DNA of 64,000 nucleotides, from the IMG/VR virus record IMGVR_UViG_3300029425_000240. One strand, 5' to 3'. This document shows, piece by piece, positions 2,791-62,991 of this stretch. Position 1 is the stretch's first letter. Every line of letters starts with the position of its first letter. The notes beneath the pieces were generated by a model. That model worked only from the letters and a program-made list of their open reading frames with translations. It ran no database searches and was not told the DNA's origin. A program made the translations under genes and the position numbers. This stretch comes from a virus.

Positions 2791-2806
2791 TTTAATATGC
2801 AGAAAA
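2791..2806 (-). promoter_or_regulatory. conserved upstream box (coding-strand TTCTGCATATTAAA), parM operon
   Basis: Family consensus TT(T/C)nGCATATTnnA; 77 nt upstream of ATG 2717, just after terminator 2843-2888. Confidence 0.5.
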
Positions 2807-2842
2807 AATTGCAGAGTGTTATATGATTTATTTTTTTTTATA

Positions 2843-2888
2843 CAAAAAAAAGAGAGCCGTATATTTTTGGCTCTCTTTTCCTTTTTTT
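2843..2888 (-). terminator. rho-independent terminator (bidirectional hairpin AAGAGAGCC..GGCTCTCTT)
   Basis: 9-bp stem, A-run before and T-run after; ends the giant-protein operon after 2887-3636. Confidence 0.6.
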
Positions 2889-3636
2889 AGAATTGTTTTT
2901 TATAAATAGAATATGTAACAAGTGCAATGCCTACTGCTAATAATACCATAAACACAAGTTTTATGCGGTTTGCAAGAGAACTTGGTTTTTCGTCTTCCTT
3001 CTCTGCTTGCTCCTCTTCTGGCGTTACTATGATTGTATTATCGTCTTTAGACGTACTCATATCGGAAGATGCATTACTATCTGTACTTGCATCCGATGAT
3101 TGTTCGCTGTTCGTACTGTCTGAAACATTTTCAGAGTCTTCTGTCTGACTGTCTTTACTATTTTTTTCAGAAAGTGCCTGTTTCTGGTCATATGTCAAAT
3201 ATGGATTGTCTTCTTCTTTCATTTCTCCATCTTTGATTCTTTGTTGTACAATTTCTTTTGCATTTTTATCCAACGCTTTCATGTTATCGCCAGTCATATT
3301 GTCAATAAAATCCTGAGCCGCTGGTGTCCAGTCGTAATCAGAATCCATATATCCCATGTTATACATTCGCTTGCAGTATTCTTCATACTCGTAAGATGAT
3401 TGAAATAATGATTTTGGACGATAAAAAGACTGCGTATACTCTTCGTCTTTCGTGTAATCATAATCACCATTCGTCGCACTTGTATCTTCTTCTCCATTAT
3501 CATCTGTAAACGTCGTAGAGTCTTCTTGTTCCGCAGCAAATGCTGGTACTACCAATGCTGACGCTACTATAGTAGAAAACATGAAAGAAACTATGATTGT
3601 TCCGGTTATTAACACTGTCATGTATTTTTTTTTCAT
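2887..3636 (-). CDS. secreted acidic Ser/Asp-rich protein with C-terminal TM anchor
   Basis: N-terminal signal peptide (MKKKYMTVLITGTIIVSFMF...AFA), low-complexity D/E/S-rich middle, C-terminal hydrophobic stretch plus KKQF; GGAGG RBS 8 nt before ATG. Confidence 0.55.
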   Translation of the reverse strand: MKKKYMTVLITGTIIVSFMFSTIVASALVVPAFAAEQEDSTTFTDDNGEEDTSATNGDYDYTKDEEYTQSFYRPKSLFQSSYEYEEYCKRMYNMGYMDSDYDWTPAAQDFIDNMTGDNMKALDKNAKEIVQQRIKDGEMKEEDNPYLTYDQKQALSEKNSKDSQTEDSENVSDSTNSEQSSDASTDSNASSDMSTSKDDNTIIVTPEEEQAEKEDEKPSSLANRIKLVFMVLLAVGIALVTYSIYKKQF

Positions 3637-3656
3637 TTTTTTACCTCCATCAAGAA

Positions 3657-5432
3657 TTACAACCCAGGATATCTTCCGAAATGAGCAAATCCTGAATAGT
3701 TATTTATTTTAATAGCTTTTCCTGGCGCATGGTATATTCCGTCTGTATATCCTCCAGTACAATGAAGCCAATATTTTGTACCATTTACAGTTCCTATATA
3801 AATTCCCACATGGTCTTCCCCGCCAGCATTGCCGGGCCAATGCTTTTGTCCGACATCTCCTGGTATAAGTTGACTTTCTGATATCTCTGTAAACGTGCTT
3901 GAAATTGATGGAGTTGCCCAATCCGCAGCCGACTGCCCTTCTTTAGCTGCTACTCCAGACCTCCAATAGCACTGACCTACAAATGATGAGCAATCAAGAT
4001 ATTTGGGACTTTCATATGACGGTGAGTTCCTTGCGTTCATATCATACGTCACGCCATACAGCATAACTCCCTGCTGTATAATCTCACGCCTTTCTTTTGT
4101 CACTTTACTATCCCATGTCGCCATACACTTTTTCAGTATCTCTTTCATATCATCCGGCAATTGTCCCATGTCCAGGTTTCCAGAACCACCGCCAGAGCAT
4201 TTATAATTTTCAAATACCTTTTGATAAAACTTCTGGTCCGAATATTTATATTTGCCATTTTCATCATCAGCATTAGCTCTTTCTTCACCATGGGCGATTA
4301 CTTTTGCATAAGCCTCAATGATAGAGTCATAATCCACCTCTTCTTTTTCTGCGGATTGGTTTTTACTACTTGACGCCTTGTTGTTACAATAGTCCGTAAA
4401 TGTAACAAACCCGGTTTCTTCATCAAGTTTTAGTGGCGACCTATTATATTGATTTTTTATTGCTTTAGAACTTCCACCAAATTCAAATCCCTGGACAACA
4501 CATATCAATGAATCAGTATTATAAGGTGATGGATAGACTGCTTCTTCCACTATATTCGCAAAGGCCTTTGCCGCGGCATCTATGGATTCCTGCACTGTGT
4601 ATTTTCCAGCCTCTTTTTTCTTATTTGCTAGGTTTAGCCTTTCATCTTCTCCATATTCGTCTTTCGGCGAGACATTTGCTTTGCTGCTTACCGGAGTAAC
4701 GTCTCCGTTGCTTGTATCTGCCAGCCATGAACCATTGATATGAAATAAATCAAACTTATCGCTGCCCTCTCCTTTTATATCTTTTTTCATGGCTTCATAC
4801 TCATCTTTATGCTCATTAAACCTTGCTTGCGCAATTGCCTTAAATATCTCCTTATACGTTTTAAAACCATTATCTTCCGCCGCTTTGTCCATCAGGTCTT
4901 CATACTTTGCAACCTCATCAGACAAAACCGCTTCGCAGCTATTACTCAGCTCAACTGTTTCATACATTCCTTCAAATTCATTCCAATTCGTAGAAGAGTA
5001 AAAATCTTTCATTTCTGATTCTGTATCTTCATTTTTCCAAAATATTGGCGTTTTTGTTCCATCAGTATTTAAATCAGATATATTATAAATCCCCTCCGCC
5101 AAAGCGAACGGCATGCCTCCGACGGTTAATCCCGCCCATTCGTATGCTTTATAATGAAACGTAGATAATCCTTTCATTATTTTTTCCAATGCTTTTTTTT
5201 CTTTTTTTGGCATTGTCGTTGGTGTTGGGGTCGCTTTTTTTTGCCCGGATTTATTTGCTTTTGATTTGACGGTTGAAGTTCCTGTAGTAGAGGCCACAGC
5301 CGCATAAACCGGTACGCGAGACGCGGCAATACTTGTGAGTATAAGTGCTAAAACAAGGATTATGGCCACGACTCCCGCAATTAAGCGTTCTCTATGTTTA
5401 TTTTGTTTTTGTTTTTTTCTCAATTTTATCAT
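3657..5432 (-). CDS. membrane-anchored NlpC/P60-family cell-wall peptidase
   Basis: C-terminal ~120 aa has the NlpC/P60 Cys...His...His arrangement (YLDCSSFVGQCYW ... HVGIYIG ... HCTGG); N-terminal TM anchor; start re-assigned to ATG at 5432 (track starts at 5480 upstream of the GGTAGGAGG RBS). Confidence 0.7.
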   Translation of the reverse strand: MIKLRKKQKQNKHRERLIAGVVAIILVLALILTSIAASRVPVYAAVASTTGTSTVKSKANKSGQKKATPTPTTMPKKEKKALEKIMKGLSTFHYKAYEWAGLTVGGMPFALAEGIYNISDLNTDGTKTPIFWKNEDTESEMKDFYSSTNWNEFEGMYETVELSNSCEAVLSDEVAKYEDLMDKAAEDNGFKTYKEIFKAIAQARFNEHKDEYEAMKKDIKGEGSDKFDLFHINGSWLADTSNGDVTPVSSKANVSPKDEYGEDERLNLANKKKEAGKYTVQESIDAAAKAFANIVEEAVYPSPYNTDSLICVVQGFEFGGSSKAIKNQYNRSPLKLDEETGFVTFTDYCNNKASSSKNQSAEKEEVDYDSIIEAYAKVIAHGEERANADDENGKYKYSDQKFYQKVFENYKCSGGGSGNLDMGQLPDDMKEILKKCMATWDSKVTKERREIIQQGVMLYGVTYDMNARNSPSYESPKYLDCSSFVGQCYWRSGVAAKEGQSAADWATPSISSTFTEISESQLIPGDVGQKHWPGNAGGEDHVGIYIGTVNGTKYWLHCTGGYTDGIYHAPGKAIKINNYSGFAHFGRYPGL

Positions 5433-5534
5433 CCTCCTACCGCTTACAAACACAGCTTGCGGTTTCCTTGCCTGACGCAATGACGGGCGGAGTACTCCGC
5501 CCGTACCACAATCACGCGTCGAACATACACAATA

Positions 5535-8500: not shown

Positions 8501-11500
8501 AATCGCCTATGCTCTGGTCCCCGAGCACACCTTTTCGTATAATTTTTTCTCTTGTATTTTCATATACATTCAGATAATCCGTTATTGCACTTGCTGCTTC
8601 TGGAGACAATCCGCCGCCAGCCAGAAGTTCTTTTAATGTATCTGTATTCTCAGTAAGACCAAGGTGCTTAAGTTTTGCCTTTGCGTCAAACAGATATTGA
8701 CGTTCAATATCGCTCAAATAGCGTGTTTCCAAAAACACATTCATTTGATAAAACTGTTTGCTGTTTCCACTGATTGATGTCAATATTTTATCGTAATTTG
8801 CAACCAGCGTATTTAGGTCTAATTTCAAATCAATCGACTTCATATTAGCTGCTGCGCCTGCAAGCAGCTGTGCTCGAAAGACTGAATGCATTGCCATTTT
8901 TTGTTTAAAAATAAGCTGAGAGACTTTGCCTTTGTTTAATGCTTTCTGGTACAAAAGTCCACTATACGATTCTGTTACTTTGTTTGATATAAACTTATCT
9001 CCAACTTTCACAAAATCTGCGTCTGTAATAGGCTGGTTTAATGCTGGGGCTATTGTCATCGCCATTGTCATTTGTTTTGCATTGACCTTAACATCTCTTT
9101 TAATATGGAATTCCAGGCCAGCCAACGTTTTGGTCGTTCCTATGCTTCCATCCGTACTTATATCAAGGACAGTGCCTGTAGCCGTATAAATCTTGCCGCC
9201 ATATACAGCCGCGTTTTTCCAACCAACAAAAGCTCTGTCTTTGTCTACTGAATATACGTTCAATACAATTCCATCTATTCTGATAGTCCCGTCAGAACGG
9301 ACTGTGTATCTTTTTGATTTTCCATTTCTGGATATAGTTACCTGATTTCCTTCTTTTAGGACAAACATTCCAACGTCTGTGAAATTTGAGTTCTTTACGA
9401 CGCCTGGAATTCCCAGTGTATGTATAGACGGTCTCGTTATATTAAAATTCTGTGTTGCGCCAGATGAGGTTGGTCCCACTGGGCCAGATGTAACGCCTGG
9501 AACGTTCAATCCGGAACGAGTCCCCGCTGCTATCTCTCTCGCATTCGCAAGAGCCTGCTCTACATTTATCTTTATCGTTTCTACATCAGCCTGACCTGCC
9601 AAAGCATAGGAATCGGCGATTTGTTTTCCGCTTATCTGCGTTGCTGCCTGCGCACTGTTCACTGCACTGGCATATGCAGCAAGTTCGCTGGCCGACATGA
9701 TTGATGCATCTTTCAGCATCACCATACCTTCCGCTTTGTCCGTAGCAGTCTTTGCGGCATCAGAGGTGGCCTTTGCAGCTTCTCTTGCCGCTAACGCGGC
9801 TGCTACTGCAGTTACAGCTGCAGCTCCGGACACAGTACCTCGTACAGTATGTGTCTGACCTGAGCCTGACGGTACTGTGATTTCAATAACTTTCGTTTCG
9901 TCCTTTTTTTTGATAGATTGAAGGCCATTTTTACTTTCACTCGCAACCGAAGAACCTCTCTTTTGTGGATACACCACATCAGTTTTATCAGACTTTAAGA
10001 CACGGTTTTCGGTGACTTTTCTGTCAGCCTGTCCATCCTTTCTGCCAACGTAGCTATAGGTCTCTCCTGGACCGTATGGTTCTTTCCTCTTCTCATCTAC
10101 TGGAGCCTGTCCCGAAGATTCATATGAATCCCTGCTATATGTCTGCTTTCGTTCATTGATGCCGCCAGACGCCCTATCCGCATCTTGATTTTCTTGATTA
10201 GCAGCCCTATTCCTGAGAACCTCTTCAATAGCACTCGCTCCAGGCTTTTCATCCCGATGGTTTCCTACATCTTGCCGCTGGTCATGCGTCATTGTTTTTG
10301 CTTCGGAAGGCTGGTGACTGTCCCCATCTAATCCTGGATATTGATTCGAGGCAGTATGTGAAGCTGGCATCTGAGAGATTGGTCTTCGGACAATGTTATC
10401 GGCCTGGAACCTTTCACTTTTAGATAAATCATCTACTGCAGATTGACGCCTAGATGTCACCTCTGATGCACTATGTTCTCTTGTACTACTCTTTTCATAT
10501 TTTCTTTCTACTTCTCCAATTCCGTCAGAGAATGGTGGCTGCACACTTCCTGTATGCTTATCCGCAAGCCCCTGTCTTTCCAGATTTTCATAACCACGGT
10601 CTTTATGCTCGGCTTCTCTCTGTCCAGCCATTTCATATGAACTGCTTACATATCTTTTTGCATTTTCTGAAGCCGGTTCAGCAGACGGACGTTTATCTGC
10701 GCCAAAGTTTAAGACAGAGTGTGAATCTCCATTTTCTTTTCTTGCGATGCTGTCCGTACTATTCGCTGTGGCATCATAGGCTCTTCTTTCATTCCGTGCT
10801 ACGAATGTCGAAGATTGGTCTTCATTCTTAGTAGCATCATATGCCTTGGGTTTAAACGATGCGTACGTATCCTCACCGGTATCCTTGTGAGATTGAATAT
10901 CAGCAGATTCCCGTTGCCCAGCCTGCTCATATGAATCATTAATGTATTTTTTACTTTCTGATGCTTCTCTTTTATATTGTGCGGTTCCATTTGACGCGTT
11001 TCCTGAGTCTGGATTGCTGATGGCATTCCCGTCATATACTGATTCCTTTTCATGCTGAGGAATGCTGCTCGCTTTATACGGTTCGCTGCTATTCGGCTTA
11101 TCGAATCCCTGTGTGCTTCTATAACCTTCTGTATCATGCTCTCTGCGTTTTTCTACAATAGAGCCATCTGACTCCGCGTGTTTGTTTATACCGGCATCCT
11201 TCTTGTATATAAAACCTTCGTTATATTCACTGCCTTGATTTGGTCCAACCCTTTCAGTATTGCGATTTGTGTGGTTATTCTCAGCTTCATATAAACGGTT
11301 TTCCTTATCAGTACCACCATAACCTCCGTCATATTGATGGCGCTTATAAGTTTCACCAGTATCTCTTTGTCCAGACTTCTCATACGAATCAGATATATAT
11401 TTGTTTTCCGATTCAGTCCTTCTTGTATTATCTACTGCCGCTTCTGAGCCTGCCTCTGAATGATATTGAGACGTATCCTCAGCCTTCTTTCGGTCAAGTA

Positions 11501-12848
11501 CGCCAGCACCCACCGAATCCTCACGGCTTCCCCGCGATGACTGGTACCTTGATTCGTTATGAACGTTTGCACGATTTCTTTCATCCCTTACCTCGGGTCT
11601 GTCCTGTCCAAAAAAATCAGAATAAGTATCTCCTTTTACAACATGACTTACATCCTGAGCGCTTTTCGTGTTAAGTTCTTCATGACCAGATATTTGTTCT
11701 ACATTTTCCCGCTTTGGTTCAAATACTTGAGGACCAGTTCTATTTATGTCTTCTGTAATATGGGAATCTTTTTCCGCATAGTCATTTGTGATACGAGAAG
11801 AATACTCATTTGTCGCAGACCTGTTATTATCTTTCTTTTCAGGCTCCGGCCTTTCATCTCTCTTATCATTCTTATGCGACCTGTCTTGTGCATCTGATAA
11901 TGTGTCATTGTCCTTGGTCTGCATCTGCTGATACAAATCAGACGACTTTCGAGCTTCGCGCTCGTACCCAGACGCTGAACGTGGATTCAAACCCTCGTGC
12001 GACGTTAAAATTGAAGTATTTGCCTCATGAGCGGATTCTTGCCGGTCATGGATTTCCCGTTCTTCGTTAAACGTATCTGGTTCATAATACTGAGTTTTAC
12101 TCTCATTGTGTTTTGTCAATTCGTCCGAAATATTACCTTTCACCACATTTGTAACATCATCTGCACTTTTACTCTTATCGTGTATACTTGTGATATTAAC
12201 AGTTGTTTCAGGTCTCTCAGCCAGTTCCTTTTGCCTTAAAGCTTCTCTTTGCCGTTGCTGTTCTTCAGCCCTGGCCATGGCCTCTCCACGTTCGTCTTCA
12301 AGTTTGGATTCCAGAGACATACGATGCTCATTATCATATCGCTCCTGTTCCGCAGCACGAGACAATGCTTCACGGCGTTCTTCGTCAAGATGAGCCCGCA
12401 TCTCGTCACCTTTTCGGTATTTTTCACTGTCCCTCTGGTTTCCGGTATGTTCTCCACCTACGATATTCTTTAAAACTTGGTCTTTCGTTGAAAGCCCCTG
12501 TGGTTCTTCCGGTCCTGGCTCCTCTTCGCCCTCTTCTACCTCTTCATCTGCAGAGGCATCTTCAATGGTTCTTTCACCATGTCCATCTTCTTGTCTCTCA
12601 AGCTGAAGTTCTCGCAGATATTCATAAAATTCCGGATACTTATCTGGAATTTCTAAAATTTCCGCATTATCAAAAAGTTCATCCAGGTCGACTCTGCTTA
12701 AAGCCTCATCTGCCGCTTTAAAGCTAATCCTTTCCTCGTCTGATATATCTGGGGAATCCTGTTTTCCGTCTATATCTATCATATCCAGACATAAACCTCT
12801 CTGAAACAGATTGGCCAATAAGCTTATATATTCTTCTTTTGGCAACAT
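5535..12848 (-). CDS. giant (~2440 aa) multidomain membrane protein: disordered acidic/Arg-rich N-terminal ~1000 aa, Ala-rich helical region, Lys-rich amphipathic segment plus single TM, C-terminal peptidoglycan-hydrolase region ending in a phage-tail-lysozyme/SLT-like domain (GYGLTQWSFGRR...)
   Basis: Single uninterrupted frame; start re-assigned to ATG 12848 after GGGAGGTGAAAAGG RBS; K-rich segment then LISALVAALGPIIIALIIVLAIILCIISYV TM; architecture resembles VirB1/PrgK/TcpG-type conjugation hydrolases (inference). Confidence 0.75.
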   Translation of the reverse strand: MLPKEEYISLLANLFQRGLCLDMIDIDGKQDSPDISDEERISFKAADEALSRVDLDELFDNAEILEIPDKYPEFYEYLRELQLERQEDGHGERTIEDASADEEVEEGEEEPGPEEPQGLSTKDQVLKNIVGGEHTGNQRDSEKYRKGDEMRAHLDEERREALSRAAEQERYDNEHRMSLESKLEDERGEAMARAEEQQRQREALRQKELAERPETTVNITSIHDKSKSADDVTNVVKGNISDELTKHNESKTQYYEPDTFNEEREIHDRQESAHEANTSILTSHEGLNPRSASGYEREARKSSDLYQQMQTKDNDTLSDAQDRSHKNDKRDERPEPEKKDNNRSATNEYSSRITNDYAEKDSHITEDINRTGPQVFEPKRENVEQISGHEELNTKSAQDVSHVVKGDTYSDFFGQDRPEVRDERNRANVHNESRYQSSRGSREDSVGAGVLDRKKAEDTSQYHSEAGSEAAVDNTRRTESENKYISDSYEKSGQRDTGETYKRHQYDGGYGGTDKENRLYEAENNHTNRNTERVGPNQGSEYNEGFIYKKDAGINKHAESDGSIVEKRREHDTEGYRSTQGFDKPNSSEPYKASSIPQHEKESVYDGNAISNPDSGNASNGTAQYKREASESKKYINDSYEQAGQRESADIQSHKDTGEDTYASFKPKAYDATKNEDQSSTFVARNERRAYDATANSTDSIARKENGDSHSVLNFGADKRPSAEPASENAKRYVSSSYEMAGQREAEHKDRGYENLERQGLADKHTGSVQPPFSDGIGEVERKYEKSSTREHSASEVTSRRQSAVDDLSKSERFQADNIVRRPISQMPASHTASNQYPGLDGDSHQPSEAKTMTHDQRQDVGNHRDEKPGASAIEEVLRNRAANQENQDADRASGGINERKQTYSRDSYESSGQAPVDEKRKEPYGPGETYSYVGRKDGQADRKVTENRVLKSDKTDVVYPQKRGSSVASESKNGLQSIKKKDETKVIEITVPSGSGQTHTVRGTVSGAAAVTAVAAALAAREAAKATSDAAKTATDKAEGMVMLKDASIMSASELAAYASAVNSAQAATQISGKQIADSYALAGQADVETIKINVEQALANAREIAAGTRSGLNVPGVTSGPVGPTSSGATQNFNITRPSIHTLGIPGVVKNSNFTDVGMFVLKEGNQVTISRNGKSKRYTVRSDGTIRIDGIVLNVYSVDKDRAFVGWKNAAVYGGKIYTATGTVLDISTDGSIGTTKTLAGLEFHIKRDVKVNAKQMTMAMTIAPALNQPITDADFVKVGDKFISNKVTESYSGLLYQKALNKGKVSQLIFKQKMAMHSVFRAQLLAGAAANMKSIDLKLDLNTLVANYDKILTSISGNSKQFYQMNVFLETRYLSDIERQYLFDAKAKLKHLGLTENTDTLKELLAGGGLSPEAASAITDYLNVYENTREKIIRKGVLGDQSIGDFKVERAFYAAALPYVLQARGLPSDKKALKKLLKAGTTSKETKELIRNVFKLQRRMFLLNLTETTLTAYAKGAVKAVKNGYRKIKSLANRYMGDDYTMRGLLMMESIIVGSAMKAYRTSRKIKWMRENAGRLLNSSIRLGKSIGNAAVAGYRGAKAGIHAVHMGGRAARKGFQYLRKNGLKKTLKKGVKKLRMKGTKVVRKGVLKVAKVAQKAAIKAIQAAIKLIQTLISALVAALGPIIIALIIVLAIILCIISYVKNAGNEVYYDAGDEDTTEVLQEMVDVLTLCHNSFRSELSNHFGGTSSTGSASGTDGSTMNAPQLQKGDSSKVQGLYDVTEGTWWNYEFTYQYIHGNWASGTRQQALDNKVTVEGNGNYAVVDQNGTKMYMAAFGSYWGKVGDVLKVEFNNEFTIGSQPASNTMYIIIADEKAWKDTGYPAEQEGIYGHHLGSHRDFAEFIGYGSKPAGLNGNGLIPTTATNMGSILDGTFDSSTIGTGSAASSVSVNADILYRQEIDQDVYRDILNRDKNIYYTFPEEQKVPDGITPTPTPEGYVKADAKGEVYGFYNNNQELISMVMAMFDFEASSSTSTKSTIISKKDASGFDEAKTNDTYQKGMTDKEVDDKWKLIEYLNEKGLDLTNYKAGGYDDLRYSALIGLFNASHIITGTAVKQYHAGPDGTINPVYNDDGRIVGQNNTDGMSYQVPVMETKTRQVRNEHGDIQIEYYTGYKTDSDGNIVYETKYAPCPGHTKYSGAVITLHFDSLLNLDDWWEKNIYGVDDFDKENPNYESSDASADTYRAKENTLKRTIQYIKKPDYYKSLSGTCSEGENSTTDSFNPGTWDGDQAKVAKEVYEFLTTKMSRKLTSEQAMGVLVNIYRECSFNYTEEETGGTGYGLTQWSFGRRTKLVQWCNANGYQYNTLEGQLKRLECEFTEDTSDWSPSGVEGFYACTTAREAGEFFITNYERPGAQYKAQRLAEMDSDIATIQAMLQS

Positions 12849-12862
12849 CCTTTTCACCTCCC

Positions 12863-13279
12863 TTAATCTGAATTTTTTGCTGCTGCAATAATCTCCGACA
12901 GCCTTAGTGTATGGATATTACGAACTTTAAACATCTCGTATTTTCTCGGGTCATCCAAAATCACATCAATTTTATTTGTCATTGCATAAAGTATTGCATA
13001 TGCTTCATCTTCCGATAATATTTCATCATTTCCGATAATACTTCGGAGAACTATCTTACTCGTTTTAAGCTCTGCTCTTTTGATTTCGCTCCTGAATATC
13101 TTTAGACTGTCTAAATCCAGGTTCTTCGCAAAATAGTCGTATATCTCCGAAGTCGTGTAGACCTCATCGTATAGATTCAAAATCAGGTATTCATAGCCTG
13201 AACGAAATAAAGTCTGTATAATTTCTTTATCAGCAATGAGTGCAGATTTTGCTTCTGGCAAATCACTGTATTTTGTCAA
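12863..13279 (-). CDS. hypothetical protein (138 aa), first gene of the giant-protein operon
   Basis: TTG start preceded by AAGGAGGAAAGGAAA; conserved box 98 nt upstream; no recognisable domain. Confidence 0.5.
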   Translation of the reverse strand: MTKYSDLPEAKSALIADKEIIQTLFRSGYEYLILNLYDEVYTTSEIYDYFAKNLDLDSLKIFRSEIKRAELKTSKIVLRSIIGNDEILSEDEAYAILYAMTNKIDVILDDPRKYEMFKVRNIHTLRLSEIIAAAKNSD

Positions 13280-13373
13280 TTTCCTTTCCTCCTTGCCTTT
13301 GCTTTTTCTTTTTTTTGCATTTTGTGGTTGTCACCTGTTGCTATTTCAGAAACAGGAATTAATTACCGCTTAT

Positions 13374-13389
13374 TCTAATATGCTAAATT
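13374..13389 (-). promoter_or_regulatory. conserved upstream box (TTTAGCATATTAGAA), giant-protein operon
   Basis: ~98 nt upstream of TTG 13279. Confidence 0.5.
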
Positions 13390-13480
13390 TTTTAAAAAAC
13401 GAATGCATTTTGTACACAAAAAAAAGAGAGGTAAGGTTTTGTCCTCATCTCTCTCCTTCCCTATTTTTTTTTCGTTTTTT

Positions 13481-13730
13481 GCTATCTTGATAGCTCACGC
13501 TTCGCGCTCGTGATACCTTGCCGTATCGGCTCGGTACCAATTTGCGCAGCAAATGTCAAACGAAGCCGTAAGGCTGAGTGGTTCGGCGAACTTGCGTTCG
13601 TCATCACCAGACGTTGACTGCCGTCCAGCAATGAAGCGTGTTTCGAATGGGGATTCAGACCCGCGTGCGAAGTTAAGACCTGAACCTTTGACCCGCGGAC
13701 GACTTTTTGTCAGCCGGGGGTTTTCGCCCT
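13481..13730. repeat. mosaic hairpin-repeat cluster R1 (modules C-A-B)
   Basis: GGTACCAATTTGCGCAGCAAATGTCAAACGAAGCCGTAAGGCTGAGTG (module A) and GTGCGAAGTTAAGACCTGAACCTTTGACCCGCGGACGACTTTTTGTCAGCCGGGGG (module B) recur at other loci; module B forms the last ~20 codons of ORF 13673-14497. Confidence 0.7.
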
Positions 13731-17242: not shown

Positions 17243-17255
17243 TTTTTCGATGATA

Positions 17256-51274: not shown

Positions 51275-51343
51275 ATTTTTGCGGGTTAAAAGAAAAAATT
51301 ACCTAACTCACGATTAAAGTCACGAGAATGCGGAGGCTAATTT

Positions 51344-52042: not shown

Positions 52043-52058
52043 TACAATATGAAAAATA
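52043..52058 (-). promoter_or_regulatory. variant box (TTTTTCATATTGTA) with GTGTTACA 17 nt further upstream
   Basis: ~165 nt upstream of ATG 51883; the 45-nt context is near-identical to box 46094-46140. Confidence 0.4.
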
Positions 52059-52864: not shown

Positions 52865-52880
52865 TACAATATGCAGAATT
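52865..52880 (-). promoter_or_regulatory. conserved upstream box (TTCTGCATATTGTA), sirtuin gene
   Basis: 31 nt upstream of ATG 52838. Confidence 0.5.
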
Positions 52881-55384: not shown

Positions 55385-55400
55385 TGTAATATGCAGAATC
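55385..55400 (-). promoter_or_regulatory. conserved upstream box (TTCTGCATATTACA), ftsH
   Basis: 45 nt upstream of ATG 55345. Confidence 0.5.
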
Positions 55401-55538: not shown

Positions 55539-56444
55539 TCAAACTATTTTATGCAAGGTGTATGTTTTTGCATCCTTTTTTCCCGTTCCTTTTGTATATG
55601 GCTTTACATATCCGACTTTCCCGGATGCATAATGACGGTAATGACCGCGGACAGTCCAGGATTCAGTCAGTCTCTGATGCGGCTTGCAGGCAAGACGATG
55701 TATTGTCTCCTCATTAAGCGAAACGATTTTCGTTCCGTTTAATACAATTGCCTTTTGTCCATATTGTCCATACTTTACATTTTCGTGATGCGATATGGCT
55801 TGCTCCTGTTTCATTTGGTTTGAAGGTTCTACCTGTTTGATTTCAGGGTTTTTGCTAATGTAGTTTAGCATTCCTATTGTCTTTAAGAACATACGAAATT
55901 CATCAAAAGTATCATTCATCAAATTATTACAATCTGACGAAACAAAATCTCGATATCCTATTCCGTTTTCGTTCGGCATTAAAGCACACGGCATGTCCAT
56001 ATCTCGGATTACAATTTTGGGATATGTTCCAGTGCGAGAACTGTTTGGATAAATAGTAAAACAAGCATTATAATAATATGTGGGATTATTTTCCTTTCTA
56101 ATATCAATAAAAGATTCCACTATGATGTCGTAACTATTTTCCCCAACATTTGTAACATTGAATACCATAGAAAATATTGAATCATCTTTATGTTCAATAA
56201 ATACCCCATTATTTAATATAGGCAAATATTGTAGTTGCTTATTCGCCAAATCAAGACGACTTATCTCTAATTCTACACGTTCTTTATCGACAATGATTTT
56301 ATCCATCTTTTCAGCTTTAGACATAAGACTTTTCAGTTTGATATCTGACTTCTTTTTCTTCTCTATTATCTCGTTCATTCTAATCTGTTCAAATATCTTT
56401 TCCTGCATTTTTCCTGCATATCCCTTTTTTCTTTTGATTTTCCT
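55539..56444 (-). CDS. hypothetical basic protein (~300 aa)
   Basis: Track ORF starts at GTG 56486 inside the promoter box; first ATG at 56444 (MRKIKRKKGY). Confidence 0.5.
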   Translation of the reverse strand, partial: RKIKRKKGYAGKMQEKIFEQIRMNEIIEKKKKSDIKLKSLMSKAEKMDKIIVDKERVELEISRLDLANKQLQYLPILNNGVFIEHKDDSIFSMVFNVTNVGENSYDIIVESFIDIRKENNPTYYYNACFTIYPNSSRTGTYPKIVIRDMDMPCALMPNENGIGYRDFVSSDCNNLMNDTFDEFRMFLKTIGMLNYISKNPEIKQVEPSNQMKQEQAISHHENVKYGQYGQKAIVLNGTKIVSLNEETIHRLACKPHQRLTESWTVRGHYRHYASGKVGYVKPYTKGTGKKDAKTYTLHKIV

Positions 56445-56487
56445 CATTGTTTTTCTTCCTTTCTTTGTAAAAATTTTCTTTGTCACC

Positions 56488-56503
56488 TCTAATATGCCGA
56501 ATC
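56488..56503 (-). promoter_or_regulatory. conserved upstream box (TTCGGCATATTAGA)
   Basis: 48 nt upstream of ATG 56444. Confidence 0.5.
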
Positions 56504-56570: not shown

Positions 56571-57068
56571 TTATGCCATTTTTTTGTAAACTTCCAGAAG
56601 TTGTTTAACTTCTTCAGACTCGCAACACTTTTCTAATGCTGTAATACAATCCAATATTGGCGTGCTGATTCTTACCTGAACCTTTAAAGGACCACATTTG
56701 TTATCTTTTGATTTAACCTCAAATACTGCATAAATCCCATAGAATCCATCCTGATTTTTCACATCAAGGAATTCATCTGAATGTTCTAATTGCATCTGAT
56801 GTTCACAAGAAACATTCTGCAGCCATTTCAGGAGGGTTGTTGCTTCACTTTTAGAGTCCACAATTATCATAACGTTAATTGTATCGTCTGCATTTAATGC
56901 CGCATCAATTCCGGTTTTGCAATCTGGCCTTTTTATAAATCCATCAGTTGATACAATCGCCACTTTTGAAAAACGTGCTGCCTCGCCAATCGCGGCATCC
57001 ATACACCACATTGCCCGCTGCATGTATTTATAGTGTTCTCCATAGAATTTTTCTACTGATTTCTCCAT
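56571..57068 (-). CDS. hypothetical protein with possible RelA/SpoT-like nucleotidyltransferase fold
   Basis: ATG 57068 after AAAGGAAAATGAT (track starts at TTG 57095); pattern FIKRPDCK...DDTINVMIIVD...GFYGIYAVFEV...LKVQVRIST loosely parallels small-alarmone-synthetase motifs; tentative. Confidence 0.45.
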   Translation of the reverse strand: MEKSVEKFYGEHYKYMQRAMWCMDAAIGEAARFSKVAIVSTDGFIKRPDCKTGIDAALNADDTINVMIIVDSKSEATTLLKWLQNVSCEHQMQLEHSDEFLDVKNQDGFYGIYAVFEVKSKDNKCGPLKVQVRISTPILDCITALEKCCESEEVKQLLEVYKKMA

Positions 57069-57099: not shown

Positions 57100-57115
57100 A
57101 GTTTTCATTCTTAAT
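57100..57115 (-). promoter_or_regulatory. conserved upstream box (ATTGACATATTAAG)
   Basis: 36 nt upstream of ATG 57068. Confidence 0.45.
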
Positions 57116-57177
57116 ATGTCAATTCTCCATTTTTACAAAAAAAAATACAGCCAAAAGTTCTGGCTGTATCAAAAAAC

Positions 57178-57396
57178 TTAAACCTGCTGGCAGATTTCTC
57201 CATATCCATAGCATCCGCCCCCCTCTGCGTCCACAGTCCAATGTGGCATATTGTTGTCATCTACCCAAAAATATGCATCATGTGCCGCAGTTATGACTCT
57301 GGCAGCATTTGGATTGAATTCGCCATCCACAAAAAATTTGTCTCCTTTTCTTATTTTCTGAATAGTCTCTTCCGGCATTAGGATGTATTTTACCAT
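57178..57396 (-). CDS. hypothetical small protein (72 aa)
   Basis: GAAAGGAGAAAAAAGAA-ATG; own box 58 nt upstream. Confidence 0.45.
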   Translation of the reverse strand: MVKYILMPEETIQKIRKGDKFFVDGEFNPNAARVITAAHDAYFWVDDNNMPHWTVDAEGGGCYGYGEICQQV

Positions 57397-57449: not shown

Positions 57450-57465
57450 AATAATATGAAGGATT
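57450..57465 (-). promoter_or_regulatory. variant box (TCCTTCATATTATT)
   Basis: 58 nt upstream of ATG 57396. Confidence 0.4.
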
Positions 57466-58675: not shown

Positions 58676-58701
58676 TTTTTGTCTCCTTTGTTTTTTCTAT
58701 A

Positions 58702-58717
58702 TATGATATGCGGGATT
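58702..58717 (-). promoter_or_regulatory. variant box (TCCCGCATATCATA)
   Basis: 31 nt upstream of ATG 58675. Confidence 0.4.
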
Positions 58718-58740
58718 TTTTGGAGAGAAGAAAAATTTGC

Positions 58741-58772
58741 GAAAAAAGAGCCTGCAGAATTTCTGCAGGCAA
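58741..58772 (-). terminator. rho-independent terminator after 59-aa gene
   Basis: Perfect GCCTGCAGAA-T-TTCTGCAGGC stem immediately after TAA, T-run on minus strand. Confidence 0.65.
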
Positions 58773-58787
58773 AATTGCTTCACGGAG

Positions 58788-58967
58788 TTATCTTCCGTAC
58801 TGGAAATCTCCGTTAGAATCCACGAACTCATCCCACCAGTCCTCGCCGTCAAAGACCTCATATCCGGTTGCATGGCAAAGTTCAGAGTTTCCGTCCACAT
58901 CAAAACGCTTATCAAACGGCATTTCCTCAAGGTGGCGGCGTTCTTTCCAAAATTCATGTTCGTTCAT
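58788..58967 (-). CDS. small acidic Trp-rich protein (59 aa: MNEHEFWKERRHLEEMPFDKRFDVDGNSELCHATGYEVFDGEDWWDEFVDSNGDFQYGR), below ORF-track threshold
   Basis: AAGGAAAAAAAGAT-ATG, TAA stop immediately followed by a perfect hairpin terminator; own conserved box; the overlapping 86-aa track ORF (58697-58957) is the wrong frame and runs through the next promoter. Confidence 0.45.
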   Translation of the reverse strand: MNEHEFWKERRHLEEMPFDKRFDVDGNSELCHATGYEVFDGEDWWDEFVDSNGDFQYGR

Positions 58968-59006: not shown

Positions 59007-59022
59007 TCTAATATGCGGAAAA
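59007..59022 (-). promoter_or_regulatory. conserved upstream box (TTCCGCATATTAGA)
   Basis: 45 nt upstream of ATG 58967 (59-aa ORF). Confidence 0.45.
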
Positions 59023-59125: not shown

Positions 59126-59154
59126 TTGCTTATACAGGAATTTCTTGCTATACT
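59126..59154 (+). promoter_or_regulatory. sigmaA-like promoter (TTGCTT-17-TATACT) on plus strand
   Basis: Correct 17-bp spacing; drives the plus-strand small ORF 59267-59410 through a ~110-nt leader containing a GAGGAGG..CCTCCC hairpin. Confidence 0.4.
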
Positions 59155-59266
59155 GTTATGCATAGGAAGCCGGAATTACGGCAGGCGGTTTATCTCCTCC
59201 AAAGCAGCAACATCGCTGAGGAGGTTCATCCTCCCAGCTTTATTTTTACAAAGGAGGGTGATGCGT

Positions 59267-59410
59267 ATGTACGAAAAACTCGCTCTTGAGTTAACTGCGT
59301 TAGCTTTTTTGTTTCAGTGTATCCGTTTTATATGGAAAATTGAAATTGAGCGTTACAAGATGCGTAAGAAAAAACCGTCGACTACTGCCAATAGACGACG
59401 GAAGAAATAA
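59267..59410 (+). CDS. small hydrophobic/basic protein (47 aa: MYEKLALELTALAFLFQCIRFIWKIEIERYKMRKKKPSTTANRRRKK)
   Basis: AAAGGAGGGTGATGCGT-ATG on plus strand, ~110 nt downstream of a sigmaA-like promoter TTGCTT-17-TATACT; below track threshold as a separate ORF. Confidence 0.3.
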   Translation: MYEKLALELTALAFLFQCIRFIWKIEIERYKMRKKKPSTTANRRRKK

Positions 59411-59716
59411 AATTACATCATAGTAATATTGGAGATAGACCGTTTGCACGGCTTCCTATATTTATATATATCATACTCCCCCGCGCTATCAAAGTCAAGC
59501 GCGGGTTTCCCATTCGCTCTATCTTTTTTACTCCATTTTTTTATTTCGCTCCTCACTTCGCAACCTGATTCCCCGTCATTCTCACCAGCCCTTCCATATC
59601 CCGGTTCAGCCTGTCCAACGATTCCTTGCTCGGCCTTCTCTCTGGCGGGACCTTTACCAGTTCCGCCCAGCCGCCGCTTTTGCTCAGTTCTTTTTCCAAT
59701 ATTTTTCTTATTTCCA

Positions 59717-60592
59717 TCAAGATTCCTCACAAATTTTTCTCGAACCAGCACCTTCAATTTTAGAGCAAACAATACTGGTCATTTTTACAGCGCGTTTCTT
59801 TCCTTTTTTATTGCGCTCTACTGTTACATATGTTAACATCTTACATCTGATTTGCAAAGTTCGCTCTTTTCCAGGCTTAAACAGCCCTCTCATTTTTACC
59901 TGTTTGTCAACTTTAATAAGAACATCTTTTTTGAAGTCGTAATGTTCATACGTGACCATATCACAATCACTGGAAACATATGCGGATTTAATTCTTACGA
60001 CATCGTAATCGCTTCTGTTGCGATTAACATCCCACTTAGAAAACTGCATGTAAATTGTTTTATTATCAAAACATTCTAATTCTTTAATATAATCTTTTCC
60101 CGGTGGCAAATCTGATATATCATTGTACTCATTTTTTCGTTGCCCTTTCTTCCACATTGAAAAGCAGCGAAAACCTAATCCCTTTTTTCCAGCATCTTCT
60201 GATTGTTTAGTTTCTGAAATCTGATATTCATAAAACACTCCATCCAGCTGGAGTGGCAAAACGCCATTTATTTCCGTTAAATTAATACGTTTCTTTAAGT
60301 CTTTGTTGATTGCTGTCCAAAAACGTCCAAATATCTTTACCGGAATTTGTTCTTCGTCAATTGAATTGCATTTAATAATTTTAATTGAATGAAACATTAT
60401 GGTATCACAGATTTTATTTCCAATTCTTCCAGGCATTAAAGCCCAATCGTCAGATTCTATTAATACATTGTGACCAATCCAGGGTTCTAGCTCGTCAATA
60501 TAACCGCTGCTTTTCTGCAAGCTTGAAAAATCAGTATTTTGCTTATTCCTTACCGTTGGTTTTGTTAGTTTGTTTTTGAATTTTTTATTCAT
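59717..60592 (-). CDS. hypothetical protein (291 aa), paralogue of 62435-62938 product
   Basis: AGAGGAG RBS; N-terminal ~110 aa aligns with 62435-62938 protein (YIDELEPWIGHNVLIESDDWALMPG vs YVEELEPLLGAVIVLECDDWVFIPG; GFRCFSMWKKG vs GFQCFSMGKVG). Confidence 0.55.
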   Translation of the reverse strand: MNKKFKNKLTKPTVRNKQNTDFSSLQKSSGYIDELEPWIGHNVLIESDDWALMPGRIGNKICDTIMFHSIKIIKCNSIDEEQIPVKIFGRFWTAINKDLKKRINLTEINGVLPLQLDGVFYEYQISETKQSEDAGKKGLGFRCFSMWKKGQRKNEYNDISDLPPGKDYIKELECFDNKTIYMQFSKWDVNRNRSDYDVVRIKSAYVSSDCDMVTYEHYDFKKDVLIKVDKQVKMRGLFKPGKERTLQIRCKMLTYVTVERNKKGKKRAVKMTSIVCSKIEGAGSRKICEES

Positions 60593-60776: not shown

Positions 60777-60792
60777 TGTAATATGCCGCGAA
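60777..60792 (-). promoter_or_regulatory. conserved upstream box (TCGCGGCATATTAC)
   Basis: 36 nt upstream of ATG 60746. Confidence 0.45.
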
Positions 60793-60823
60793 TTTCAAAA
60801 AACCTTATTTTTTTGCGGATTTT

Positions 60824-60839
60824 TTCGCTTGAGGTTAAT
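60824..60839 (-). promoter_or_regulatory. conserved upstream box (TTTTGCATATTAAC), tandem with 60777-60792
   Basis: Second copy 47 nt further upstream, just after terminator 60858-60892. Confidence 0.45.
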
Positions 60840-60857
60840 ATGCAAAACGCAGAGAAG

Positions 60858-61200: not shown

Positions 61201-62301
61201 TTATATTTTTACCACTTCAAAATCGCAAGAATTAAAATATTCCGCTAATTCACTTTCGCTTATCGTGGAAGTAGTAAGATTTTTATACACAAGAATATAA
61301 CAATCTTTTGTAATCACTCTCCCGCAACGGCCGTATTTATCATAATCATCATAATAATCTTTATATATAACATCTTTGCTTCGTGACATATGATTTTTAT
61401 GAACTTTCATCTCCCTCAACACCGACGGGTAATCATCCCCAACAGAAGGTTTTAGTTCCAAAAATATATTTGCATTATAAGGAAATCCTAAATGTATATA
61501 AACATCCCATCCATTTACCTCAAATGTTGTTTTTTCTATCACAAATCCGTTATTTTTTAATTTTTCATATAATTTATTTAAATACGACTTCTTGCCTAAA
61601 ACTTTAGATTGCTTCTTACTCAGCGTCTTGATACTTGAATCTATATCTCTAATTTTATTAGAAATCTCCCACTTCTTATTTCTATATTTATTTTCCGGTT
61701 CATTTAATTTGTCTATTTTAGACTCGCATTCATTGTATTTCTGCTGGATTTCTTCGTATTCTTCTTTTTCTAACTTAGTTTGACTATAATTGCTTGTTTT
61801 CCAATCGTCGTAACTCCGGCTCATTAAGTACGGATTATTGCACATTTTGCGATATTCAGCGCATTTATTTTTCAAGTACTCAATTTCATCTTTATGCTCT
61901 TCGTGCTCCTTTTTCTCAAGGTCAGAAAATTCTTTTTCTTTTACCTCGTGTTCTTCTTTTTCTTTTTGTAGTTCAGTAATCTGTAGTTCAATATCACTTA
62001 TTCTTTCATCGCAATCTTCAATGCGCTTTTTATAGCCTTTCATTAATTCTTCTGGTTCTTTGAATAATTGCCTTATAACTTTTTCTTTGACCTCAGTTTT
62101 CATAAAATCGGCCTGCATTCTGTTGTGTTCAGGAGTATCCGATGGCTCGCAAAAATTATTAACGATGACGTTATAGAGCTGAATATGGCCCGTCCTAAAC
62201 CATTCTTGAGCCATTAGCCAATCCGTGTATTTTTTATCATTCGCCAAAACCTCTACCGGCTGGCCTTTATACTTTCCGAATGTAATTAATTCAGCGCTCA
62301 A
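61201..62301 (-). CDS. coiled-coil protein with DUF3820-like N-terminus (FGKYKGQPVEVL...YTDWL)
   Basis: TTG start after AAAAGGGGAAG; N-terminal FGKYKG motif as in DUF3820 / Qsr-type proteins; E/K-rich coiled coil. Confidence 0.5.
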   Translation of the reverse strand: MSAELITFGKYKGQPVEVLANDKKYTDWLMAQEWFRTGHIQLYNVIVNNFCEPSDTPEHNRMQADFMKTEVKEKVIRQLFKEPEELMKGYKKRIEDCDERISDIELQITELQKEKEEHEVKEKEFSDLEKKEHEEHKDEIEYLKNKCAEYRKMCNNPYLMSRSYDDWKTSNYSQTKLEKEEYEEIQQKYNECESKIDKLNEPENKYRNKKWEISNKIRDIDSSIKTLSKKQSKVLGKKSYLNKLYEKLKNNGFVIEKTTFEVNGWDVYIHLGFPYNANIFLELKPSVGDDYPSVLREMKVHKNHMSRSKDVIYKDYYDDYDKYGRCGRVITKDCYILVYKNLTTSTISESELAEYFNSCDFEVVKI

Positions 62302-62336
62302 AGTATCTTCCCCTTTTTATGTTTTTTTTGCTTTAT

Positions 62337-62352
62337 TTTAATATGCCGAACA
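62337..62352 (-). promoter_or_regulatory. conserved upstream box (TTCGGCATATTAA)
   Basis: 41 nt upstream of TTG 62301. Confidence 0.5.
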
Positions 62353-62434
62353 TTTTTCTTTTTTGTCGTTTTTTAGAGCCATTTTTTTCTTTTTACAAAA
62401 AAAAGGCAGCCGCCGGCTTCGCCGGCGTCTGCTC

Positions 62435-62938
62435 CTATCTGTCTCCAACTTTCCCCATGGAAAAGCATTGAAACCCAATGTTTTTCTTTACGAATTTGCC
62501 ATTTATCCCGTCAATAAAGACCTTGTGTTCATATACTCTCCCGCGCACATGAATCGGAGTCCTTCCATGGATGCCTGATTTATATTTGTCTATTTTTCCT
62601 TTCAGTCCAAGACGTTCCCTGAAATCAGCATCCACAGCCGTCCAGATTTTCTTTGAAATTTTCACCGGACATTCAACTCCTCTGCTTGCCGGACACTTGA
62701 CAAGCTTCACAGATTTCAGCAGTAACTTCTCGCACGGCATACCGCCAAGCTCTCCGGGGATAAACACCCAGTCATCACATTCCAGAACAATCACTGCGCC
62801 AAGCAGCGGTTCCAGTTCTTCCACGTAGCGCTTACCTTTCGGAATCTCAGCAAATTCTTTTCCGAATTTCTTTTTTCTTTCTGGTTCAGTTTCCAATTTG
62901 TTTTTATGTATATACTTTTCATCTCTATTGCGGCTCAT
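62435..62938 (-). CDS. hypothetical protein (167 aa), short paralogue of 59717-60592 product
   Basis: AAAGGAGAGG RBS; shared N-terminal domain with 59717-60592. Confidence 0.55.
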   Translation of the reverse strand: MSRNRDEKYIHKNKLETEPERKKKFGKEFAEIPKGKRYVEELEPLLGAVIVLECDDWVFIPGELGGMPCEKLLLKSVKLVKCPASRGVECPVKISKKIWTAVDADFRERLGLKGKIDKYKSGIHGRTPIHVRGRVYEHKVFIDGINGKFVKKNIGFQCFSMGKVGDR

Positions 62939-62975
62939 TTTTTTTGCCTCTCCTTTTCTTTTTATTTTTTATATA

Positions 62976-62991
62976 CCCAATATGTCAAATT
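62976..62991 (-). promoter_or_regulatory. conserved upstream box (TTTGACATATTGGG)
   Basis: 43 nt upstream of ATG 62938; follows terminator 63001-63033. Confidence 0.5.

Follow-up and report, generated by a model that had tools for sequence, protein, structure and literature searches.

A strand-oriented CATATT box as a predicted promoter class for the sigma factor encoded by a large, apparently conjugative element of the human gut

Sigma factors carried by mobile elements are familiar from phages; for plasmids we know of only a few cases, among them SigN of pBS32 and the clostridial toxin-gene sigma factors, with limited regulons. A C at the first position of the −10 element (CATA-type) is common for group-3 alternative sigma factors, and composite or extended −10 elements of this group include CCCCATnT for sigma32 and GCCGATAA for sigma28/sigmaD. 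Systems that use a −10 element only include T4 gp55 (TATAAATA) and the cin-box of streptococcal ComX. The sporulation factors of Bacillus recognize −10 sequences of the type CATACAnT (sigmaE), CATAnnnTA (sigmaK) and CATnnTA (sigmaG), with −35 sequences ATA/AC/GnATR. Here, we analyse a window of 64,000 nt from the IMG/VR record IMGVR_UViG_3300029425_000240 (all coordinates follow the numbering of this whole stretch), which belongs to a large, apparently conjugative element of the human gut that encodes a sigma-70-family factor and carries a recurrent box upstream of its genes. Of the described systems used for comparison, SigN (ZpdN) of the Bacillus subtilis plasmid pBS32 directs the host core polymerase to plasmid promoters, including its own (PMC6751061), and the late promoters of phage SPO1 that depend on gp34/gp33 have the sequence CGTTAGA(N17–19)GATATT (quoted in PMC3601020).

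The motif TTYNGCATATT has 21 matches in the window where 0.91 are expected, and none of 100 shuffles reaches 21. The bare core GCATATT is only about twofold enriched (28 versus 15), so the flank matters. With variants and a loose copy at 60780 included there are about 29 candidate boxes, which bears out the element-wide box of about 27 copies proposed in the initial annotation of this DNA, and further boxes lie beyond both window ends. When a purine is also required at the next base (the motif TTYNGCATATTR), 18 copies are left in the window; all 18 are intergenic (P ∼4e-18, with intergenic DNA making up 10.8% of the window) and all run in the direction of the gene that follows. As the initial annotation had held, the recurrence of the box lies far beyond chance. 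Three perfect copies of the shorter motif lie antisense (16881+, 35817+ and 45769+), where the next base is C or T; two of the three read AATATGCGAAA on the minus strand, and at 35817 this AATATGCGAAA forms the start-codon context of a small open reading frame (ORF) and is kept as coding sequence in the related locus L011. The core reads CATACT at 17230, 29197, 49024 and 50525, in line with the few CATAC variants seen at the outset, and T or A replaces the G at 30392, 35878, 52046, 57113, 57453 and 62979. Placement on the coding strand of the following gene, also part of the initial annotation, holds as well; of the three plus-strand copies it listed, two are convincing (24033, before a DUF4046-like gene, and 24888, before tnpB) and the third was not confirmed. 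Since the orientation of the box flips with these two plus-strand genes, words that are polar with respect to the replichore are ruled out; Chi-like and FtsK-orienting words were considered and rejected on these grounds and because the sites are only intergenic.

Most boxes end 28–124 nt 5′ of a start codon with a ribosome-binding site, close to the short distances first described, with long leaders at a few (34046 and 46098). For about two thirds of the boxes, the 45 nt upstream include a run of at least five T residues, and several boxes directly adjoin a clear hairpin terminator, which agrees with the reported overlap between the box and the T-run of the preceding terminator. In an unbiased 7-mer test that set intergenic against genic DNA, both read on the coding strand, only T-runs, box words and the ribosome-binding site emerged. 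The transcription units delimited in this way contain one to four genes and reach up to ∼10.5 kb. Past the low-coordinate end of the window, the type IV secretion genes of locus L026 (PrgI-like, VirB4-like and others; 10900–19900 of that locus, ∼11 kb) are free of boxes between positions 8757 and 19973, and not all units are therefore short. The modular layout of single genes and short operons put forward earlier is roughly right and not universal, given the ∼10.5-kb unit and this ∼11-kb operon just outside the window.

Fifty non-redundant sites from the window and related loci, selected on the core, were aligned and numbered such that the last T of the core is at −7 from the predicted start. 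The consensus is T(−17) T/C(−16) C/T(−15) n G(−13) C(−12) A(−11) T A T T(−7) R n A. In these core-selected sites A(−11) and T(−7) are fixed in 50 of 50, and both are kept in the CATACT and non-G variants. The predicted +1, located 7 nt after the last T, is a purine at 27 of 29 window sites (binomial P = 4e-5) and at 48 of the 50 aligned sites, the base at the predicted −1 is T in 30 of 50, and the DNA just 5′ of the box is A-rich. The lack of a conserved −35 hexamer noted at the outset was reproduced: a Gibbs sampler applied upstream of the boxes returned only terminator T-runs (5.1 bits, against 3.7–4.0 in shuffled controls). Minority subclasses do occur upstream, namely AAAAAAC(G/A) ending 21–22 nt before G(−13) at seven of the 50 sites (compare AAAAAACGAnCG), TTGTAAAAAT at three sites (family D9) and GTGTTACA placed 17 nt from CATATT at two sites, 46098 and 52046 (family D19), the last being the pair already recorded in the initial annotation. 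A CGTTCG- or CGAACG-like sequence occupies the −35 position in a minority of boxes, and some copies have an approximation to a sigmaA-like −35, for example TTGCAA-16-CATATT before the sigma operon. At −15/−14, where a sigmaA extended −10 has TG, the box shows a pyrimidine followed by any base, and G(−13) and C(−12) come next. The box looks like a composite element that joins an extension to the −10 core, and its information content appears high enough to need no −35, an estimate that is inflated by the selection of sites on the core. Sigma-54 was considered because of the TTGCA in some boxes and was dropped, since informal inspection of the aligned sites showed no GG element upstream.

The gene at 34549–35565 (minus strand) encodes a sigma-70-family factor of 338 residues, confirming the family and location assigned earlier, with matches to Pfam Sigma70_r2 and to TIGR02937 (residues 71–283) and support from AlphaFold and Foldseek. 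In NCBIfam the only match that reaches its cut-off is this TIGR02937 superfamily (sigma-70/ECF) and no named subfamily does so; a partial match to FliA/WhiG is present, and the matches to sporulation sigma factors are weak ones to SigH, far below the cut-off. Profile-level matches to phage sigma families are found in PHROGs. The AlphaFold model contains helical region 2 and region 4 domains with helices at residues 137–186 between them, and Foldseek aligns it over 260–316 columns to B. subtilis/S. aureus SigB, SigA, sigmaS and sigma28. On this model the protein looks like a three-domain, group-3-like factor with regions 2, 3 and 4 that lacks region 1.1 and the non-conserved insert. HMMER alignment to SigA chains places the family motif TTFIAPWI(K/R)HVVS(D/E)Y on FSTYATWWIRQAITRA, with PWI(K/R)H opposite WWIRQ of region 2.4, so that the invariant His122 corresponds to Q437 of Escherichia coli sigma-70 and Ser125 corresponds to T440. 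According to a published review (PMC2613000), a change from T:A to C:G at −12 is suppressed by Q437H and by T440I, of which Q437H is the classic example. By this analogy, a histidine at the Q437 position would agree with the invariant C(−12) of the box. Region 2.4 of the element factor also aligns with that of RpoH (…EY..RNWR versus …DY..KNFR).

The sigma gene is the second gene of its operon. The first, at 35528–35824 (minus strand), is an ORF of 98 residues that overlaps the sigma start and is conserved among the lineages: an ORF of 88–99 residues occupies the matching place in L001, L011, L013 and L017 and overlaps the sigma start in every close lineage. No family match was found for the 98-residue ORF in database searches; its product could be a cofactor or regulator. 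Two boxes in tandem, TCCTTCATATTG and TTCGGCATATTA, lie 14 nt apart at 35864–35888 (minus strand) before this operon.

Homologues of the sigma factor with 40–84% identity are found in loci, all from human-gut metagenome assemblies, that share a syntenic order of genes for surface proteins, the small ORF, the sigma factor, a single-stranded DNA-binding protein (SSB), a clamp, a coupling protein and topoisomerase III. In the lineages with 54–80% sigma identity and 30–41% G+C, a box of the form T(T/C)nnGCATATTR recurs upstream of genes, and 247 kb of these lineages hold 50 unique TTYNGCATATTR copies on the strand of the sigma gene versus two on the opposite strand. Upstream of an orthologous gene for a 620-residue protein, the box is the sole conserved block in five of six lineages; in the sixth the interval was mis-chosen. 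Before the sigma operon, the box is present in every lineage examined down to 72% sigma identity. The 14-nt tandem before this operon is also present in lineages at 79–80% (L039, L053, L056 and L068, near 9680–9700), a single box is found in L001 and L017, and L011 has a box with TATATT 14 nt upstream; the conservation of the tandem suggests special control of sigma synthesis. In a more distant clade (∼40% identity) CATATT, which is among the commonest hexamers of the upstream regions, lies ∼30 nt before the ribosome-binding site with T or C instead of G(−13). Two sigma factors of ∼42% identity from a related element (loci L004–L006) have upstream regions with CATAT-type cores and no fixed G. 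They keep the region 2.3–2.4 motif, including the histidine, and in the helix aligned to region 3.0 their sequence is YYSAAM..V.AAIN in place of YYANAMKKINGAQN, with A in place of N141 (opposite E458). It is possible, with few lineages behind the comparison, that the box extension and region 3.0 covary. As a small control, 52 kb from three unrelated conjugative loci that lack a sigma homologue contain no box.

Host-type promoter sequences are scarce in the window. The coding strand of the intergenic regions contains 26 CATATT, versus four TATATT and three TATAAT, and a sigma-70-type scan of the window in thirds gave no excess over shuffles (33 versus 50, 54 versus 55 and 48 versus 49). We consider it likely that the box is a promoter class read by the host core RNA polymerase together with the element-encoded sigma factor. 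A single promoter model accounts best for the orientation of the boxes, the −11/−7/+1 geometry, the layout of terminator, box, leader and gene, the scarcity of host-type −10 elements and the co-travel of the box with a sigma gene that itself bears one. The dedicated promoter class with a CATA-type −10 predicted in the initial annotation is in this respect supported by placement, by the −11/−7/+1 signature and by conservation in syntenic sigma-bearing elements. In the proposed mechanism, the core polymerase with the sigma factor would bind the box, region 2 would capture A(−11) and T(−7), the invariant histidine at the Q437 position would read C:G at −12 and the region 3.0 helix would read the extension. 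Transcription would then pass a leader of 20–120 nt, cover one to four genes and end at the next intrinsic terminator, and the box before the small ORF and sigma gene would create positive feedback, with the few host sigmaA-type promoters serving other functions. No candidate for a second RNA polymerase was found in the window, and the 1142-residue and 622-residue proteins have no matches in PDB, Pfam or PHROG.

We weighed three other explanations. It is unlikely that an alternative sigma factor of the host reads the box (for example a sporulation-type sigmaG/E/K-like, sigmaH-like or heat-shock-like factor of a Clostridia host) while the element factor controls something else. A C that opens the −10 is a common feature of group-3 factors, CATATTA fits the sigmaG-type CATnnTA at 37 of the 50 sites, and the alignment of region 2.4 to RpoH means that similar specificities could exist in hosts. 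Neither a sigmaG-type −35 (GnATR) nor any other −35 was found, however, and CATACAnT of sigmaE and CATAnnnTA of sigmaK misfit box positions 9–13, so that the loose resemblance to sigmaE/sigmaK promoters suggested at first fails in detail; only the sigmaG type fits, and that without its −35. The box is moreover kept over elements of 30–41% G+C, presumably in different hosts, always with the sigma gene, it stands before the sigma operon itself, and sporulation or stress control of partition, replication and transfer genes would be odd. Somewhat less probable still is that the boxes are weak promoters for host sigmaA, aided by the A-rich upstream DNA or by an element-encoded activator for which the conserved flank is the binding site. 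CATATT matches TATAAT at four of six positions and contains the A(−11) and T(−7) that are most critical to any −10 of the sigma-70 family, the DNA directly upstream is A-rich, and some copies have a sigmaA-like −35, as at the sigma operon. Against this, C(−12) and G(−13) are nearly invariant whereas sigmaA prefers T(−12), CATATT outnumbers TATAAT by 26 to 3, the box has no TG at −15/−14, the true sigmaA-like promoters of the window look different (TATAAT or TGcTATACT with a TTGnnn −35) and the asymmetry of the box is unlike most activator sites.

That the box is no promoter at all, and acts instead as a repressor or silencer operator, or as a signal for RNA processing or stability at the 5′ ends of cistrons within long transcripts, seems very improbable. 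In its favour, the box keeps a set position with respect to the start codon, and with nearly all genes on one strand long read-through transcripts are conceivable. Against it, intrinsic terminators with T-runs stand immediately before about two thirds of the boxes, which argues for fresh initiation at each box. The box is also non-palindromic and has the A(−11), T(−7) and purine(+1) spacing of a −10 element. To our knowledge, an RNA cleavage signal of 12 nt and such strictness would be atypical of the known bacterial ribonucleases.

Several observations count against reading by the element sigma factor. The helix–turn–helix of its region 4.2 is well conserved, yet there is no −35 motif and the −35 zone shows a faint bias at most (≤0.36 bit per position), which is unexpected if region 4 binds DNA specifically. 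The sigma model is of only moderate quality (pLDDT 70.5, pTM 0.36), and the link from the histidine to C(−12) is an analogy with E. coli sigma-70. The picture is weaker in the ∼40% clade, where CATATT occurs in 16 of 30 upstream regions and a crude count of the pattern gives no strand bias. The sole control from outside these elements is the 52 kb of unrelated loci, and the co-occurrence of sigma gene and box could reflect mere shared ancestry of the elements. The start of expression is also unexplained if partition and replication genes need the sigma factor and the sigma factor needs itself; speculatively, its first synthesis might proceed from the weak TTGCAA-16-CATATT at the upstream tandem box or by read-through. 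Sequence analysis shows the motif, where it lies, how it is conserved, its co-occurrence with the sigma gene and the domain and residue features of the sigma factor; from these we infer promoter function, the start positions, reading by this sigma factor and the residue–base contacts.

The arrangement resembles that of SigN and pBS32 in that the sigma gene and promoters of the same class, including that of the sigma gene itself, lie on the element, which would give positive feedback. SigN promoters have a −35 as well as a −10 and serve a restricted regulon linked to DNA damage and cell death, whereas here there is no −35 and the box precedes nearly every unit, including those of partition, replication-type and transfer genes. 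Homology to SigN was not found: tblastn of the sigma factor against PLSDB plasmids gave no match at E ≤ 1e-3, with pBS32 not confirmed among those records. Unlike in pBS32, the sigma operon of the window showed no LexA-controlled sigmaA promoter; a scan of the window for LexA boxes (two mismatches allowed) gave eight matches versus 15 expected, none of them at this operon. The one perfect match to the Gram-positive LexA-box pattern CGAACN4GTTCG, at 13587–13600, lies ∼200 nt upstream of the 13377 box and adjoins a copy of a non-coding repeat. As with SPO1 gp34, a mobile element would redirect the host polymerase with its own sigma factor, and the two −10 sequences are one base apart (GATATT and CATATT). 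The −10 opens with C at all sites and the −35 is not conserved, unlike in SPO1 late promoters; nor is the element a phage, being conjugative and plasmid-like, with no match for its sigma factor by tblastn among 50,697 phage records and no evident temporal cascade. With the group-3 and −10-only systems the box shares a specificity concentrated in an 8–12-bp −10 region, a core opened by a base other than T and an upstream extension that is probably read by region 2.4/3.0 helices. It differs from them in its sequence, TTYnGCATATTR, in the lack of a named subfamily for its sigma factor and in spanning a complete replicon instead of a regulon for stress or motility. The sporulation promoters likewise have a core that opens with CATA; in the box, positions 9–10 are TT and not CA, position 12 is T at nine of 50 sites and no sporulation-type −35 is present. 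The element therefore appears to differ from SigN and the phage precedents in its near whole-element coverage, the lack of a −35 and a sigma factor of no described subfamily.

The individual boxes are described here in order of position and lie on the minus strand unless stated otherwise. A box TTCTGCATATTA at 2794–2804 precedes the gene for an actin-like protein at 1557–2717, and TTTAGCATATTA at 13377–13387 heads the ∼10.5-kb unit that contains the gene at 12863–13279, the genes for a 2437-residue hydrolase-domain protein and an NlpC/P60 protein, and the gene at 2887–3636. The variant TTCAGCATACTG at 17230–17240 precedes the unit of a RecD2-like helicase, and TTCGGCATATTG at 20210–20220 lies before an 83-residue gene and topoisomerase III. 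Two divergent boxes follow: TTTTGCATATTG at 23982–23992 precedes a gene for a 366-residue protein and the type IV coupling protein gene, and TTTCGCATATTA at 24033–24043 (plus strand) precedes the DUF4046-like gene at 24088–24768 (plus strand). The other plus-strand copy, TTCGGCATATTA with AAAAAACGACCG upstream, is found at 24888–24898, 34 nt before tnpB within a 2085-bp TnpB insertion. Further along, TTTGGCATATTA at 28094–28104 precedes the gene for a DNA polymerase III beta-like clamp, the variant TTTGGCATACTA at 29197–29207 stands immediately 3′ of a terminator hairpin and before the gene at 28203–29072, and a weak variant, ACATTCATATTA at 30392–30402, falls in the predicted overlap (30453–30493) of the SSB gene and the ORF at 29255–30493. 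The SSB-domain gene is itself preceded by TTTTGCATATTG at 31381–31391, which abuts a terminator T-run.

Downstream of the sigma gene, the box TTCTGCATATTG at 34046–34056 is followed by a long leader and a 72-residue gene; the tandem boxes of the sigma operon come next in coordinate order. The box TTTGGCATATTA at 41163–41173 precedes a unit of four genes (622, 298, 414 and 358 residues), and its position is kept in lineages down to ∼40% sigma identity. At 46098–46108, TTTTGCATATTG with GTGTTACA 17 nt upstream of CATATT is followed by a leader of 354 nt and the gene for the 1142-residue protein. The variant TTCGGCATACTA at 49024–49034, with AAAAAACGAACG upstream, falls within what is predicted to be the 5′ end of the signal peptidase ORF (48517–49089); either the annotated start of this ORF is too far upstream or the box is an internal promoter. 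The variants TTTTGCATACTG at 50525–50535 and TTTTTCATATTG at 52046–52056, the latter with GTGTTACA upstream, precede the genes at 49108–50490 and 51509–51883, respectively. The box TTCTGCATATTG at 52868–52878 is found before a Sir2-family gene, TTCTGCATATTA at 55388–55398, with AAAAAACGAACG upstream, before the FtsH-like gene and TTCGGCATATTA at 56491–56501 before the gene at 55539–56447. The variants ATTGACATATTA at 57113–57123 and TCCTTCATATTA at 57453–57463 precede the genes at 56571–57068 and 57178–57396, and the upstream sequence TTGTAAAAAT of the former is common to the 56491 and 57453 boxes. In the last part of the window, TTCCGCATATTA at 59010–59020 precedes an 86-residue gene (58697–58957), two boxes 57 nt apart (TTTTGCATATTA and CGCGGCATATTA, 60780–60847) precede a 38-residue ORF and the gene at 59717–60592, TTCGGCATATTA at 62340–62350 precedes the gene at 61201–62301 and the variant TTTGACATATTG at 62979–62989 precedes that at 62435–62938.

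Two canonical sigmaA-like promoters had been listed as the only ones in the window; both exist and are among the few host-type promoters here, and there is a third sigmaA-like site. The first, TTTGCA-18-TATAAT at 51246–51275 (minus strand), precedes the gene at 50547–51212, which has just a faint DnaJ-like match. A near-perfect palindrome of 31 nt, CAAAATGTCTACAC-ATC-GTGTAGACATTTTG at 51346–51376, lies ∼70–100 nt upstream of this promoter and could be an operator or a terminator. The second, an extended −10 promoter TTGCTT-17-(TGc)TATACT at 59126–59154 (plus strand), precedes a gene for a hydrophobic and basic peptide of 49 residues (59261–59410, plus strand). The third, TTGACT-17-TATGAT at 59498–59470 (minus strand), is convergent and faces the peptide gene, a layout of 59126–59498 that resembles a type I toxin–antitoxin pair.

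The TnpB insertion occupies 24726–26810 (2085 bp) and consists of tnpB (24933–26534) and ∼275 nt of downstream non-coding DNA, and it carries its own box with AAAAAACGACCG upstream. It is absent from L015, a locus that is otherwise 98% identical and has an identical sigma sequence, and the exact TnpB protein occurs at just this one site among the 24 longest contigs. Composite, partly tandem non-coding repeats that are unrelated to the box are located at 13504–13724, 29103–29182, 34125–34513, 38341–38423, 41301–41384 and 45934–46016, with weaker copies at 11974–12056 and 26740–26810. Their units are ∼40–43 nt long, such as GAGTTATCATATTTATTCTGGTAACGA, or form an ∼80-nt block CACTCAGCCTTACGGCTTCG..GACATTTGCTGCGCAAATTGGTAMCGA. 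They lie mostly in long intergenic gaps and leaders, with weaker genic copies at 11974–12056 and 38341–38423, and resemble the right end of the TnpB insertion, with no match in Rfam; they might be repeats derived from insertion-sequence ends, structured RNAs or single-strand DNA signals. Past the high-coordinate end of the window, in L029 (1–2982), the frame of the anaerobic ribonucleotide reductase NrdD is split into several ORFs beside an HNH endonuclease gene, followed by RtcB, which looks like an interruption of the homing-endonuclease or intron type; these NrdD, HNH and RtcB genes also carry boxes.

Almost all genes of the window lie on the minus strand, and its G+C content is ∼40%. The genes include those for a VirD4/TraG-type type IV coupling protein at 20314–22863, topoisomerase III, a RecD2-like helicase, an NlpC/P60 protein, an FtsH-like protease and a TnpB protein, as well as the partition-type actin-like gene (ALP, ParM-type) at 1557–2717. 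The 2437-residue hydrolase-domain protein has a C-terminal lysozyme domain, and Sir2, sortase, signal peptidase, SSB, the DNA polymerase III beta-like clamp, an HflK-like protein and an LPXTG protein are also encoded. This gene content points to a conjugative, plasmid-like element of Firmicute type. The element extends past both window ends, with PrgI and VirB4-like genes on one side and the split NrdD, an HNH gene and RtcB on the other; the window and both flanks lie on one scaffold of 403,581 bp (ERZ28636248 scaffold_1), of which at least ∼82 kb belong to the element. Neither a relaxase nor a replication initiator was identified, large unannotated proteins of the window gave no family, PHROG or PDB match, and Rfam and tRNA scans of the window gave no match.

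Contigs with this sigma factor or its relatives reach 235–427 kb, and the exact sigma protein is found in 239 blocks of a protein-collection index. The element is known only from human-gut metagenomes, where it is common. Megablast with 20 kb of the window against phage and plasmid collections gave no match, and a scan of 185,579 species-representative genomes with the sigma profile gave no relative; the family is likewise absent from cultured genomes and from PLSDB. The nearest PLSDB relatives of the coupling protein have ∼34–42% identity, and in the species-representative genomes this protein has just 36–37% relatives in Oribacterium and a 45-residue fragment in a metagenome-assembled genome of Blautia. 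The FtsH-like protein is 48% identical to FtsH on plasmids of ∼240–300 kb from Clostridium botulinum, C. sporogenes and C. difficile. The family may be an undescribed group of giant gut plasmids. The 'Inocle' elements of oral streptococci (24–32% G+C, oral cavity) were considered and compared by description alone, and the window was not filed with them; in the literature on plasmid sigma factors, giant gut plasmids and the raw motif, nothing on the element or the motif was found.

One promoter class thus appears to stand before nearly all transcription units of this very large, apparently conjugative gut element. The wider statement concerns a widespread family of giant conjugative extrachromosomal elements (scaffolds of ∼100 to >400 kb) in uncultured Firmicutes of the human gut. 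It holds that practically the entire genome of such an element, from the genes for partition, clamp/SSB, transfer and surface proteins to a resident TnpB insertion, is transcribed with a private, previously uncharacterised three-domain sigma factor and a 12-bp composite −10 box without a −35, C(−12) being read by a histidine at the Q437 position. We give this statement about even chances of being correct. If it is true, the sigma factor and its box could form a compact orthogonal pair for synthetic biology in Gram-positive bacteria, and the element would be shielded from host sigmaA in the way that some phages are. Should the sigma factor read the box, the box would provide a simple sequence marker with which to find and delimit members of the family in metagenomes, and the family would offer a natural case of residues in regions 2.4/3.0 setting the specificity at −12 and −13. 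Expression of the element would in that event be insulated from the housekeeping transcription of its host and open to switching as one unit, with consequences for the cost of the plasmid, its host range and its transfer.

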